Shown piece after piece: positions 13,658-16,825 of a DNA stretch of 28,548 nucleotides (its first letter is position 1; each line of letters starts with the position of its first letter). A program made the position numbers and the translations under genes. The DNA is taken from the IMG/VR virus record IMGVR_UViG_2537562092_000003; one strand, given 5' to 3'. The notes under the pieces are model-generated. The model did not search any database. It was given only the letters and a program-made list of their open reading frames with translations, and was not told where the DNA came from. The stretch comes from a virus (Duplodnaviria; Heunggongvirae; Uroviricota; Caudoviricetes).

Positions 13658-13843
13658 TTCTCAATCTCTCTATGGCGCAGTGCAGCAGATGCCAGTTGTT
13701 CAGGCTGACGAATAAAGTATAAATAAACTGGCTATGGTGTAAAGCCCCACATAGCATGAACAAACACTACATATCAAATAGCTGGTACAAGGATAGAAAT
13801 ACGACACTTATTATTAAAAACGATTAGCTAAATTACATTTTAA

Positions 13844-13874
13844 TGTTATGAAAAAGTTCTTTTTTATCATAACA
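13844..13874. repeat. Inverted repeat TGTTATGA-N15-TCATAACA
   Basis: Read directly; sits about 65 bp upstream of the small ORF at 13938. Confidence 0.5.
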
Positions 13875-13937
13875 TTTCAATAAAAGCATTACAGATGCAA
13901 TCATCCCGTCATCATCAATTATTTAAGGTGGTTAAAC

Positions 13938-14024
13938 ATGGAAAATAACAAGTTTGCACATCTCGCTCCTTTTTTATCCGTAATCCTTTTCGCTTGTTGT
14001 TTTATATGGGCATTATTTTTATAA
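13938..14024 (+). CDS. Candidate small hydrophobic peptide (28 aa)
   Basis: MENNKFAHLAPFLSVILFACCFIWALFL with SD AAGGTGG 7 nt upstream; one predicted transmembrane helix. Below the track's length cutoff; hypothetical. Confidence 0.3.
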   Translation: MENNKFAHLAPFLSVILFACCFIWALFL

Positions 14025-14527
14025 AGTAGCCACATGATAAGTTGCTGGAATCATGTTTCCCACTCAAGTCATTAACATTTGATAAGACATATCTAAAAGA
14101 ATGCCTTTACACTATTTGATGCATATATGATTTATTTATATGCACAGTAAAGGTACCTGGGAATAATCAGGATTAATGATATATTACTTATCTTATTCCC
14201 AACTGTCTTTCACCTGGGAAAACATTTATCGTTAAAAAATATATCATAAATAATTAAGCTGAAATTTCAGAACACAACTAATGCACACAATAAGGTTCAG
14301 TAACAGTAATCTATGTGGAATGCATCGAGATTTCTTGATTAAACTTTAATAACTTATTCCTAACACACAGAATGCATAAACCAAAAGAAAAACAAGTAGT
14401 TACACCAAAAACAACCATATTTATTCTATCTACTCCTCTAATCAACATATCAATTATGTGTTTCATAACAGCTTGACATAACTCCTCAAAAGGAGCATTC
14501 ATAATGCATGTTTTATAGGAGGTGGTT

Positions 14528-14866
14528 ATGACACACAAGAGAATTCCTAAAGATTGGGTAATCAAACGCTCAACTCCGTTCTTCACAAAAGAGAACGTAC
14601 CTTCAGCATTATTAACACATCATAATACAGCAGCAGGTGTTTTTGGGCAGTTGTGCGTAATGGAAGGCACTGTAACATATTATGGTTTTGCTGATGAGAA
14701 TACTACTGAACCAGAGATAAAAGTAGTTATTAATGCTGGCTCTTTTGCAACAAGCCCACCACAATACTGGCACCGTGTTGAACTAAGCGATGATGCTCAG
14801 TTTAATATTAACTTTTGGGTCGCTCCAGACTTCTCAGGCGAAAAAGTCTATAGCACCAAAAAATAG
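14528..14866 (+). CDS. DUF1971-family protein (YeaR / TehB N-terminal domain-like)
   Basis: RSTPFF...HNTAAGVFGQLCVMEGTVTYYGF...QYWHRVELSDDAQFNINFWVAPD parallels E. coli YeaR as recalled; SD TAGGAGG before the ATG at 14528. Confidence 0.65.
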   Translation: MTHKRIPKDWVIKRSTPFFTKENVPSALLTHHNTAAGVFGQLCVMEGTVTYYGFADENTTEPEIKVVINAGSFATSPPQYWHRVELSDDAQFNINFWVAPDFSGEKVYSTKK

Positions 14867-14895
14867 ATGATCATATTAAAAATGCTTTAACAGTC

Positions 14896-14934
14896 AGACC
14901 CGGCAGGGCTATCCCCGACGGGTCTCCTTTTTGT
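14896..14934 (+). terminator. Intrinsic terminator after the DUF1971 gene
   Basis: AGACCCG...CGGGTCT stem followed by CCTTTTTGT. Confidence 0.55.
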
Positions 14935-15477
14935 AAATATTTTGGTTCTACATTGCCAGGAGACTTCGACCATAAGAAGTAATCTGAATACTTAAGAAAT
15001 AAATTTACTTCAGATTAATGAGCGCACCTTGCCGGACAAAGATAAACCAGGCAAACGCTTTTTTTAGCCAGTATGTAATCAATCAGAAAGTCGCTCCATA
15101 AGAACAACAACAAGGCAATAAATTGCCACCACAGCCACTATTGCTAACGCACACTTCAGAACCAGCACAACAATCTCCTGTTTTTGACGTATACATACAC
15201 TGATAAATATGTGGCTTTGTACTCACTACTTCAATAAACAAGTGTCAGTGGTGCGTAATTAAATAATACAGTCTGTTTTCAGCCAGGAACAGACATCAGG
15301 TAAAAGAATGAAAAACTATTTTGAGCTACATCATAGCTACAAGATTTCTGCTAATTTCAAGATGAGCAGGTCATTGCTGGCATAGGTGACCTGCCTATTA
15401 GTCATGATGATTCGAAAATTACGGTCGGCATACCATATATAGAAACGTTGTGACACTCTGTTGACGTAATGTAAAAA

Positions 15478-16146
15478 TCATTCCTGCCCTTCTTCTTTAC
15501 CGTAGTGGAGTTGACCAATTTTGATAAGAGGGCGTCCCTGGGATTTGCGGTGTAAATTGGTATCGCGAAGTGAATACACGCAACCACAATATTCCTGCTG
15601 ATAGAATTGTTCGCGTTTGCTGATTTCAATCATGCGGGACGAGCCTCCCTGCTTGCGCCAGTTATAATCCCAGTACACCATGCCCGGATAATGTGCGACA
15701 GCTCGCCGTCCGCTGTCGTTAACCTGCTGCATATTTTTCCAGCGAGAAATGCCCAGTGAACTGCTGATCACACTGAAACCATTTTCAGCGGCGTACAGCG
15801 CCGTCCGTTCAAAACGCATGTCAAAACACATAGTACAACGCCTCCCACGTTCGGGCTCCCATTCCATTCCTTTGGCTCGCTCAAACCAGTTGTCAGTGTC
15901 GTAATCAGCATCGATAAACGGTACACCATGTTGTTCAGCATATCGAATATTCTCATTCTTACGAATCAAATACTCTTTCTGAGGATGAATGTTCGGATTA
16001 TAGAAGAAGATGGTGTAGTCGATTCCTGAGGCCTGAAGAGCCTCCATCACTTCACCGGAACATGGTGCACAACAAGAGTGTAATAGTAGTTTGTTTGCCC
16101 CGTTTGGGAGCTCCAACTTAGGACGTTTGAAATCAGCAACTGTCAT
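15478..16146 (-). CDS. queH: Epoxyqueuosine reductase QueH-like (DUF208)
   Basis: N-terminal [11 protein letters not shown] and C-terminal QEYCGCVYS cysteine motifs characteristic of DUF208/QueH (recall). Confidence 0.65.
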
Positions 16147-16416
16147 AAATGTTTACGTCGGGGTAATGAAACTTGCAAGTTGTGTAGCATCAGAGTGTAC
16201 TGCCCCAAAAAGTTGGCAGTTAAACGAGAGGCTACACATTTTGAGCAAGATTTCAAGATCAACTAATCCCCCTTTTTTGAACAGCGTCCTGATGATACCA
16301 ATCAGATCGCATTACAATGCCACCTTAGCTGATAAGTCAGTTGATTGTTTCGTCAAAATGCTTCTTAATACCGTAAACTTATTACTCCAGCACAGATAAC
16401 ATATAATGAAATAGCC

Positions 16417-16689
16417 ATGAAAATAGATATTAAAAATAAAAATGGGAATACACAACACCTGGACGTGTCATCGTTGATTATTACGCTTAATAATGGGGAA
16501 ACGATTGAAATCACAGATGAAAACAAAAGTCGCCCAATCGATATACCTGAGGGAGTTACAGTGTGGGGAGGCCGGGCTCCCGATAAAGAAGCAAGCATAG
16601 ATCAACTAAAAAAGACAACTCGTAGCATAGGAATATATCCACTAGCCTCCAATATGGTGCACATATTCCCTTATTCTTTAAAAAAGTAA
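16417..16689 (+). CDS. Hypothetical protein (orphan, opposite strand to phage operon)
   Basis: 90-aa hydrophilic ORF; weak ribosome-binding site; no family recognised. Confidence 0.3.
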   Translation: MKIDIKNKNGNTQHLDVSSLIITLNNGETIEITDENKSRPIDIPEGVTVWGGRAPDKEASIDQLKKTTRSIGIYPLASNMVHIFPYSLKK

Positions 16690-16825
16690 AATCTTATGTA
16701 GCGTTTTAGCAGATACAAAATAAAGAGTGGAACTAAATTTGATTTTAGCGCAGTGCCAGATGAGGCGATGGCTCTGCGCCGTAGATACACCAACTTAAAC
16801 TTGAGCGATTACATTTTGATTTTGC

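Follow-up and report, generated by a model that had tools for sequence, protein, structure and literature searches.

In a lambdoid prophage of the Rac/Qin type lying at ttcA, the nin region contains, we conclude with little doubt, an exchangeable mosaic slot for cargo genes ("morons"). We analyzed this slot in IMG/VR record IMGVR_UViG_2537562092_000003, a stretch of 28,548 nucleotides of Caudoviricetes DNA (hereafter the window), in which it forms a 3168-bp island at positions 13658-16825, between the DUF977 and DUF1367 genes; positions 13500-17000 are 100% identical to the Rac-type prophage at ttcA of E. coli DETEC-P829 (RefSeq record). In the full form of our reading, to which we assign a probability of roughly three in four, the slot would be put together from five or more modules, each of which spreads on its own among the prophages of Escherichia. 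Its cargo here would be a 90-amino-acid (aa) orphan gene and a gene for QueH, the cobalamin-independent epoxyqueuosine reductase, and the hok cassette would have been replaced by an AT-rich cassette of ~1 kb (14031-15066), composed of a 440-bp spacer, an opposite-strand DUF1971 gene predicted to respond to nitric oxide (NO), and the terminators of that gene. Two further modules, which we call Elements A and B, would carry genes for single-pass membrane peptides (smA and smB), each with its own ribosome-binding site (RBS) and promoter-like signals. A feature of this type is ordinary and well known for lambdoid phages. Its details are modestly new, namely the modular anatomy of the slot with DUF1971 exchanged for hok, a predicted operator for NsrR, a QueH gene that is widespread in prophages, and two small open reading frames (ORFs).

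Evidence for exchange comes from the distribution of the parts. Among 5426 complete E. coli genomes, to which all genome counts refer unless another sample is named, the whole island configuration occurs in 43, and some part of 13500-17000 is matched in 2533. An AT tract linked to DUF1971 (13700-14510) is present in 466 genomes and never annotated; QueH is found in 995, where the Prokaryotic Genome Annotation Pipeline (PGAP) names it as such; Element A in 1372 (1160 at a coverage of at least 80%); and Element B in ~1906, at 77-89% identity. Because these parts spread independently while the whole island is confined to 43 genomes, we read it as a mosaic cargo slot. An IS3-family insertion sequence splits the match to 13500-17000 in three otherwise identical genomes (e.g., NZ_CP116970.1).

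Relatives fill the slot differently. A preliminary description of this DNA had proposed such a comparison as a check on whether the segment is a variable hotspot; the block is neither core with a typical content of guanine plus cytosine (GC) nor a collection of gene fragments. In phage Rac-SA53, hok/mok and rem occupy the same slot, and elsewhere we found KilA-N with hok and DUF1971, a 1-kb hypothetical gene, or DUF4145 or QueH followed by hokD and rem. Across 130 smB and 127 smA loci, the usual order in the direction of the operon is variable cargo, smB, the hok/sok cassette, smA (convergent), and then DUF1367 or a gene for a 92-aa protein. The gene next after smB is hok in ~100 of the 130 loci and DUF1971 in ~17, with varying cargo upstream, and smA is bordered at one end by DUF1367 or the gene for the 92-aa protein and at the opposite end by hok (84/127) or DUF1971 (38/127). 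The island of the window contains no detectable hok/sok, as judged by Pfam PF01848 (no hit even at E ≤ 10), Rfam (no sok hit), and blastn against the hok regions of fetched relatives (no match). With known morons and nin cargo, such as those of Rac-SA53 and Qin-type prophages, the island shares its position between the DUF977 side and the DUF1367/YbcO/Q block, its presence or absence between otherwise collinear phages, its deviant GC content, and an opposite-strand gene with terminators of its own. It differs from them in having a DUF1971 cassette where the hok cassette is missing and a QueH gene that lies in operon orientation without recognizable signals of its own.

The impression of an AT-rich island of ~3.2 kb, formed by eye in the preliminary description, is borne out by calculation. 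The GC content is 38.5% across the island, compared with 49.6% in the left flank (12229-13657; Q, DUF1364, and DUF1367) and 50.5% in the right (16826-19554), and it reaches a minimum of 29-30% at 13751-14500; the DUF1971, orphan, and QueH genes stand at 39.8%, 37.7%, and 47.2%. The statement that K-12 Rac has lost the entire segment is likewise correct, in that nothing in K-12 Rac matches window positions 11000-17576, and only ydaU, ydaV, and ydaW are retained there. Some of these observations would also suit the idea that the island is functionless, H-NS-silenced debris of a decaying cryptic prophage, its genes being lost as in K-12. Tracts of 29-32% GC are typical of H-NS targets, K-12 Rac has deleted the whole region, tail genes of the present prophage are pseudogenised, and IS3 insertions split the island in some genomes. 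We nevertheless regard this explanation as improbable. The three larger ORFs of the island are full length with family-defining residues intact, each module is kept at 90-100% identity in hundreds of genomes (the DUF1971-linked AT tract and QueH being the cases in point), and the operator and terminator described below are conserved, with a compensatory change in the terminator. The same modules are moreover present in the isolated phages vB_EcoS-666R9 and HannyBb, recovered as virions, which makes them more than the debris of a dead prophage.

The three larger genes are those that had been named at the outset: a YeaR-like DUF1971 gene and a 90-aa ORF on the plus strand and a QueH-like gene on the minus strand. 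All are present and intact, and profile searches assign the DUF1971 protein to PF09313, QueH to PF02677, and the orphan to no family. The DUF1971 gene (14528-14866, plus strand; alternative GTG start at 14522) encodes a 112-aa protein that resembles YeaR and the N-terminal domain of TehB. It matches Pfam PF09313 at E = 2.7e-26 (91.8 bits; cut-off 23.1), PDB entry 3DL3 ("tellurite resistance protein B") at E = 2.6e-59 over 111 residues, and the YeaR structure 3BB6 at E = 3.2e-25, and it falls into phrog_34268 of PHROGs, labeled "unknown function". An identity as the TehB enzyme itself was ruled out, the score being 48 bits against the cut-off of 303 for the TehB methyltransferase equivalog.

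Upstream of this gene, between a TTGACA hexamer (14473-14478) and the Shine-Dalgarno sequence (SD), lies a predicted NsrR-type operator of the 11-1-11 form, AAGGAGCATTCATAATGCATGTT (14490-14512, plus strand), which ends 15 nt before the ATG. It matches AAGATGCATTTNAAATGCATCTT at 17 of 22 positions, is the best site in the whole 28.5-kb window, and scores at P = 0.007 in Markov simulations of the tract; the form sought in the promoter region was the inverted repeat AAGATGCATTT-N-AAATGCATCTT. Other alleles of the DUF1971 cassette have 18-21 of 22 matches (e.g., AAGATGCATTTTTAATGCATCTT), and the consensus scan also recovers the published site of K-12 yeaR. Published NsrR sites, including the one at K-12 yeaR, share the 11-1-11 form, and chromosomal yeaR is a known NsrR target (PMC5320621). 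Because an operator of this type precedes the gene, we lean towards NsrR control and NO inducibility as the probable regulation of DUF1971. The gene would then be a classical, self-contained moron that brings along an operator/promoter region of its own and is closed by two intrinsic terminators. NsrR, the NO sensor of the host, would keep it silent until nitrosative stress lifts the repression, as with chromosomal yeaR. The K-12 yeaR-yoaG operon is regulated by both NsrR and NarL. It has in common with the prophage cassette the DUF1971 protein family and an 11-1-11 NsrR-type inverted repeat just upstream, whereas the prophage protein is far closer to 3DL3 than to YeaR, the yoaG partner is missing, and the prophage gene is preceded by ~440 bp of DNA with 28-30% GC.

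Downstream of DUF1971, a first intrinsic terminator (14896-14932, plus strand) consists of a 7-bp GC-rich stem with an inner stem, followed by CCUUUUU, and shows one compensatory change from G-C to A-U (14907/14915) between alleles. A second, terminator-like hairpin (15020-15067, plus strand) has a U7 tract, ends 12 nt from the smB stop codon, and is common only to window-type alleles; its fold is weak on energy alone (-10.8 kcal/mol, z = -0.56). The preliminary description had seen the hallmark of morons in opposite-strand genes that each possess a terminator-like hairpin, and this is true of part of the island. DUF1971 and the orphan do oppose the phage operon, and the two hairpins of DUF1971 have U-tracts. 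QueH is co-directional with the operon, since the early-right phage operon runs on the minus strand here, and the hairpins that follow QueH and the orphan lack proper U-tracts. Judged by the possession of its own promoter and terminator, DUF1971 has two terminators, an operator, and a TTGACA hexamer with no well-spaced -10, and QueH and the orphan are without a convincing promoter or U-tract terminator.

The AT-rich spacer ahead of the operator (14031-14472, ~28-30% GC) always travels with DUF1971 and is without coding signal. Its alleles differ by indels of 1-2 nt, and one allele has a 56-bp deletion (14157-14212) between direct repeats ACCTGGGAA; the segment lost in that allele holds an 18-nt inverted repeat. 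A 91-aa ORF on the minus strand that overlaps the start of DUF1971 (14311-14586) was rejected as a gene, since only 43 aa of it are left in a 94%-identical phage and its differences are mostly non-synonymous. Given the indels, the 56-bp deletion, and the failure of the sole long ORF to be maintained, we read the spacer as non-coding DNA brought along with DUF1971.

The QueH gene (16146-15478, minus strand) shares its strand with the phage operon and encodes 222 aa. Its product matches PF02677 (formerly DUF208) at E = 1.2e-65, with 221.3 bits against a cut-off of 23.5 and coverage of profile positions 1-174 of 175, and the structure of T. maritima QueH (7LC5) at E = 3.1e-22. Besides the full-length Pfam match, it shares with that enzyme the cysteine clusters, which in the window protein read CCxxC, CxxC, and CxC: C25, C26, and C29, C104 and C107, and C187 and C189 align with the CC, CxxC, and CxC clusters of T. 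maritima QueH, which has Asp at the position of C29. Membership of the family and the metal-binding cysteines of the Fe-S/iron site are established by these matches, and we think it very likely that the protein acts as an epoxyqueuosine reductase. Queuosine occurs on tRNA-Asp, tRNA-Asn, tRNA-His, and tRNA-Tyr; for the same step E. coli uses the cobalamin-dependent QueG, and it has no de novo B12 synthesis. By iron-sulfur chemistry, the phage enzyme would reduce epoxyqueuosine to queuosine at position 34 of these four tRNAs and so duplicate host QueG. As the host relies on a B12-dependent enzyme and cannot make B12, a phage QueH would free the last step of queuosine formation from that cofactor, which may be its benefit. 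The setting differs from known QueH systems in that the gene sits on a temperate phage whose host already has the non-homologous, B12-dependent QueG. The tRNA genes of the prophage itself, tRNA-Gly(TCC) and tRNA-Thr(TGT) (11723-11876, minus strand, just downstream of the Q-like gene), fall outside the queuosine-modified set and have no evident direct link to QueH.

Records of QueH in phages are sparse. The family is phrog_3217 in PHROGs ("unknown function"), just one named E. coli phage in INPHARED has it, and the deazaguanine-encoding viruses analyzed by Hutinet et al. 2019 include no QueA, QueG, or QueH (PMC6884629). In the library that we searched, we found no relevant paper on QueH or DUF1971 in prophages, those of E. 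coli included. Downstream of QueH, within 15271-15395 on the minus strand, two hairpins (15395-15367 and 15294-15271; z = -2.17 and -0.71) are without good U-tracts; in E. coli B, this downstream region accompanies QueH (79.6% identity).

The third gene, the 90-aa orphan (16417-16689, plus strand, opposite to the phage operon), gave nothing significant in Pfam, NCBIfam, PHROGs, or PADLOC, the only match being a weak one to a BapA-prefix profile. It has 14 homologs at 61-100% identity whose named sources are only Escherichia, Citrobacter, and Enterobacter, with 36 invariant alignment columns, and an exhaustive profile search extends these to ~35 small relatives. Homologs occur in non-prophage chromosomal contexts in Enterobacter and beside chromosomal and phage-tail genes in Citrobacter; the orphan would accordingly best be described as a free-standing small gene that is also found outside prophages. 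Tandem two-copy versions of ~170-190 aa exist in the family, and residues 16-45 match a short strand motif of which giant adhesins of the LapA/RTX type contain as many as 29 copies (PF20579 repeats). An AlphaFold2 model built from 10 sequences was unusable, with a predicted local distance difference test score of 48.6. Between the convergent orphan and DUF977 genes stands a GC-rich hairpin (16749-16780; minus-strand fold z = -1.87) with a U-tract on neither strand.

Cargo slots of prophages often hold defense genes, and some relatives have DUF4145 or other genes of unknown function in this one, so that the island might be thought an anti-phage hotspot serving superinfection immunity. We judge this very improbable: seven proteins tested with PADLOC returned no model hit at E ≤ 0.01, and the families of QueH and DUF1971 are concerned with metabolism or stress.

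Two claims of the preliminary description concern how much of the island is uncharacterized, and both need qualifying. Two of the three larger ORFs are members of named families, already part of PGAP annotation, and are for this reason not strictly uncharacterized; the least characterized content lies instead in the two stretches that had been called non-coding, of roughly 860 and 600 bp. These are indeed bare of features in the identical RefSeq record, at 13658-14527 (870 bp) and 14867-15477 (611 bp), and yet each contains a conserved small ORF; what is least characterized comprises these two ORFs, a conserved promoter-like block, and the NsrR-type operator. Nor is everything in the island unusual for this phage group, Elements A and B being the normal flanks of its hok cassette.

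Element A is a 373-bp module (13658-14030) directly upstream of and divergent from DUF1367, and no annotated feature coincides with it among the matches listed. Its copies form two clades, of at least 95% and of 73-77% DNA identity, and in the diverged clade homology ends ~5 nt past the smA stop codon. The ORF smA (13938-14024, plus strand) would encode a 28-aa hydrophobic peptide, MENNKFAHLAPFLSVILFACCFIWALFL, with a grand average of hydropathicity (GRAVY) of 1.41, preceded at 6 nt by the SD AAGGTGG. It is intact, with 28 codons, in 120 of 120 IMG/VR copies, which comprise nine peptide variants, and the diverged clade retains its start, stop, SD, and length. Over the 120 copies, the ratio of non-synonymous to synonymous polymorphism (pN/pS) is 0.32 in frame as opposed to 1.23 and 0.80 off frame, and variable sites number 5/16, 7/16, and 12/20 at the three codon positions. 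An initial test on 42 near-identical copies had been uninformative (5 non-synonymous and 2 synonymous changes), and the matter was settled only with the diverged clade. The five variants tried were all missing from a collection of 15 billion proteins, and smA has no hit in Pfam, NCBIfam, or PADLOC and a single, non-significant match in PHROGs (E = 0.24). The 16-nt RBS regions of smA (TTATTTAAGGTGGTTA, 13919-13934) and DUF1971 (TTATAGGAGGTGGTTA, 14513-14528) form a direct repeat, 81% identical and 594 bp apart.

Upstream of smA, an 8-bp hairpin in its presumed leader (13843-13875, plus strand) is fully paired in the RNAalifold analysis, at each of its 8 positions and in 15 of 15 sequences. At one of the pairs, nine sequences have G-U and six have G-C, and the loop sequence differs from clade to clade. 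Owing to this alternation the hairpin is compatible only with a plus-strand RNA; a role as a minus-strand terminator is disfavored, since that strand would have an A-C mismatch in 9 of the 15 sequences. The most conserved part of Element A is another segment, 13691-13749, near-invariant in 49 distinct copies of both clades. It contains a promoter-like TTTACA-16-TATACT (13716-13743, minus strand) that faces DUF1367/YbcO/Q, agrees with the consensus at 10 of 12 positions, and could, on this resemblance, make the block an internal promoter of the Q operon. Back-to-back with this site, the block also holds promoter-like hexamers on the plus strand, TTGTTC-16-TATAAA.

Element B is a 170-bp module (15067-15236, minus strand) with a -35 hexamer TTGAAG (15234-15229), a -10 hexamer CATATT (15211-15206) at 17-nt spacing, and an SD, AGGAG (15179-15175); promoter and SD positions are conserved over 61 distinct copies. 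Among GTDB species representatives it is confined to Escherichia/Shigella, and among the matches listed there is an annotation under only one. Its ORF, smB (15168-15079, minus strand, GTG start), would specify a 29-aa hydrophobic peptide, MLVLKCALAIVAVVAIYCLVVVLMERLSD (GRAVY 2.06). Of 125 copies gathered from IMG/VR and from genomes of species representatives, 124 have the ORF intact; there are 26 variants at the nucleotide level and 20 at the peptide level. With the positions that the search pattern fixes set aside, 9/22, 5/22, and 17/24 sites vary at the three codon positions, and pN/pS is 0.42 in frame versus 0.61 and 0.80 in the other frames. The ORF is annotated only now and then, under the labels "hypothetical" or "membrane protein" (WP_000960667.1; REL606 ACT39199.1); it matches no family in Pfam, PHROGs, PADLOC, or Rfam, and NCBIfam returned just two non-significant hits far below cut-off. 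In a scan with a 26-nt smB pattern, exact matches outside Escherichia/Shigella were limited to one 3.3-kb contig of a metagenome-assembled genome labeled "Collinsella sp." (JAIHTM010000277.1), most likely a mis-binned fragment of an E. coli prophage. Two other interpretations of this locus were rejected. The first, that smB is a truncated or duplicated Hok, received a probability of 1% from hhalign in a comparison with a Hok alignment. The second, that a 52-aa Cys-rich frame over smB (15241-15083) is "mok-like", conflicts with the want of a conserved start codon and with annotated mok, which is an in-frame extension of hok.

The substitution patterns support coding by both ORFs. We consider smB likely to be a translated gene and smA probably one too, with marginally less assurance. 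The opposing idea is that neither encodes a protein and that the conservation of Elements A and B reflects only signals in DNA or RNA, whether promoters and terminators of neighboring genes, flanks of the hok mRNA, or "linkers" of short homology through which lambdoid mosaics exchange cassettes; that the frames are open would then be incidental. It draws on the position of both elements exactly at the mosaic boundaries of the slot, on the strongly conserved promoter-like block of Element A, which is unrelated to the smA ORF, on a second frame over smB that is also open for ~52 codons, and on the fact that no gene finder ever called smA among 15 billion proteins. In the diverged clade, furthermore, a clean GC-rich terminator of hok (on the hok strand, CCCGC-TTCG-GCGGG and then TTTATTTTATC) directly borders the smA stop codon, at most 20 nt away, so that the transcripts of the two genes would meet head-on over a few shared bases. 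We think this idea unlikely, as length, start, stop, and SD are kept in 120/120 copies of smA and 124/125 of smB, even across clades only 72-77% identical in DNA; substitutions pile up at third codon positions, with pN/pS lowest in the ORF frame of each; and the alternative frame over smB lacks a conserved start codon.

If smA and smB are indeed genes for membrane peptides, their activity could be toxin-like or could regulate a membrane protein. One specific form of this idea is that either or both are toxins of new type I toxin-antitoxin modules flanking or backing up hok, as addiction or abortive-infection devices. Like the products of hok/sok, ibs/sib, ldr/rdl, and zorO/orzO, both peptides are small (28-29 aa) and hydrophobic, with one helix, and reside in prophages, most relatives having hok, a bona fide type I system, next to them. 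With those loci smA also shares a structured, conserved leader and, possibly, an overlapping antisense promoter. Codons 6-8 of smA are able to pair with its SD, and over its stop codon a minus-strand promoter-like site, TTATCN-16/18-AATAAT, is present in 109 of 127 copies, from which a fully overlapping antisense RNA would arise, as in ibs/sib. In one clade, however, the -35 of this site coincides with the U-tail of the hok terminator. Neither ORF matches a known toxin family (Pfam, NCBIfam) or antitoxin RNA; Rfam at E ≤ 1 over 11000-17500 found no RNA family inside the island, and outside it just the two tRNAs and sub-threshold noise. For smB, a short leader of ~35 nt with an unobstructed SD, a conserved sigma-70-like promoter, and no detectable antisense partner are hard to square with a lethal product; a relation of smB to Hok has a probability of 1% in hhalign. 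We therefore rate the toxin explanation as rather unlikely, and only tentatively suggest that smA, and possibly smB, may be founders of new families of prophage small membrane peptides, with smA a possible toxin of a type I system back-to-back with hok.

Several observations weigh against the full reading of a slot with an NO-wired DUF1971, QueH, two membrane peptides, and an orphan. The prophage is defective, with tail tip, tail fiber assembly, and ynaK genes annotated as truncated pseudogenes in DETEC-P829 (approximately window 700-8000). The NsrR site of the window allele is, at 17/22, the weakest of its family, and the TTGACA hexamer lies 21 nt from the best -10-like hexamer, which leaves the DUF1971 promoter not convincingly defined. 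QueH has no recognizable SD or promoter of its own, and the hairpins downstream of it have no U-tracts; its expression may be limited to that of the phage operon upon induction, and the case for a benefit to the lysogen would then be weaker. The smA and smB samples were retrieved by sequence patterns that fix part of each ORF, and pN/pS values of 0.32-0.42 on 28-29 codons represent few independent substitutions among closely related copies.

The genes around the island follow the minus-strand operon. On the replication-gene side are the ydaU-like gene (19554-18766), ydaV (18759-18013), the DUF1627 gene (18041-17265), and the DUF977 gene (17314-16826), which adjoins the island; on the other side lie the DUF1367 gene (13657-13058), also adjoining it, the YbcO/DUF1364 gene (13058-12768), and the Q-like DUF1133 gene (12891-12229). 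Between the tRNAs and the lysis genes, Rfam gave a sub-threshold match to the small RNA STnc100 (11328-11526, minus strand; 30.4 bits versus a gathering score of 47, E = 9e-4). An AT-rich trkG cargo gene between the lysis and tail genes fits a low-GC region at ~8000-9750.

Cargo slots of prophages are where temperate phages carry genes of host benefit and of conflict. The DUF1971 cassette suggests a prophage gene wired into the NO regulon of its host, with a bearing on life in the inflamed gut or urinary tract. The conserved small ORFs, of which smA is never annotated and smB seldom, are present in approximately one-quarter to one-third of complete E. coli genomes. Neither Element A nor Element B was found in the Qin or DLP12 prophages of K-12, and literature searches with the smA and smB peptide strings returned no relevant paper, nor did the small-gene supplements for Sakai give a hit; because the K-12 prophages checked lack both, small-protein discovery based on K-12 would have missed them. 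Finally, QueH, found in 18% of complete E. coli genomes, suggests that phages supply a way of maturing queuosine tRNA that needs no cobalamin.

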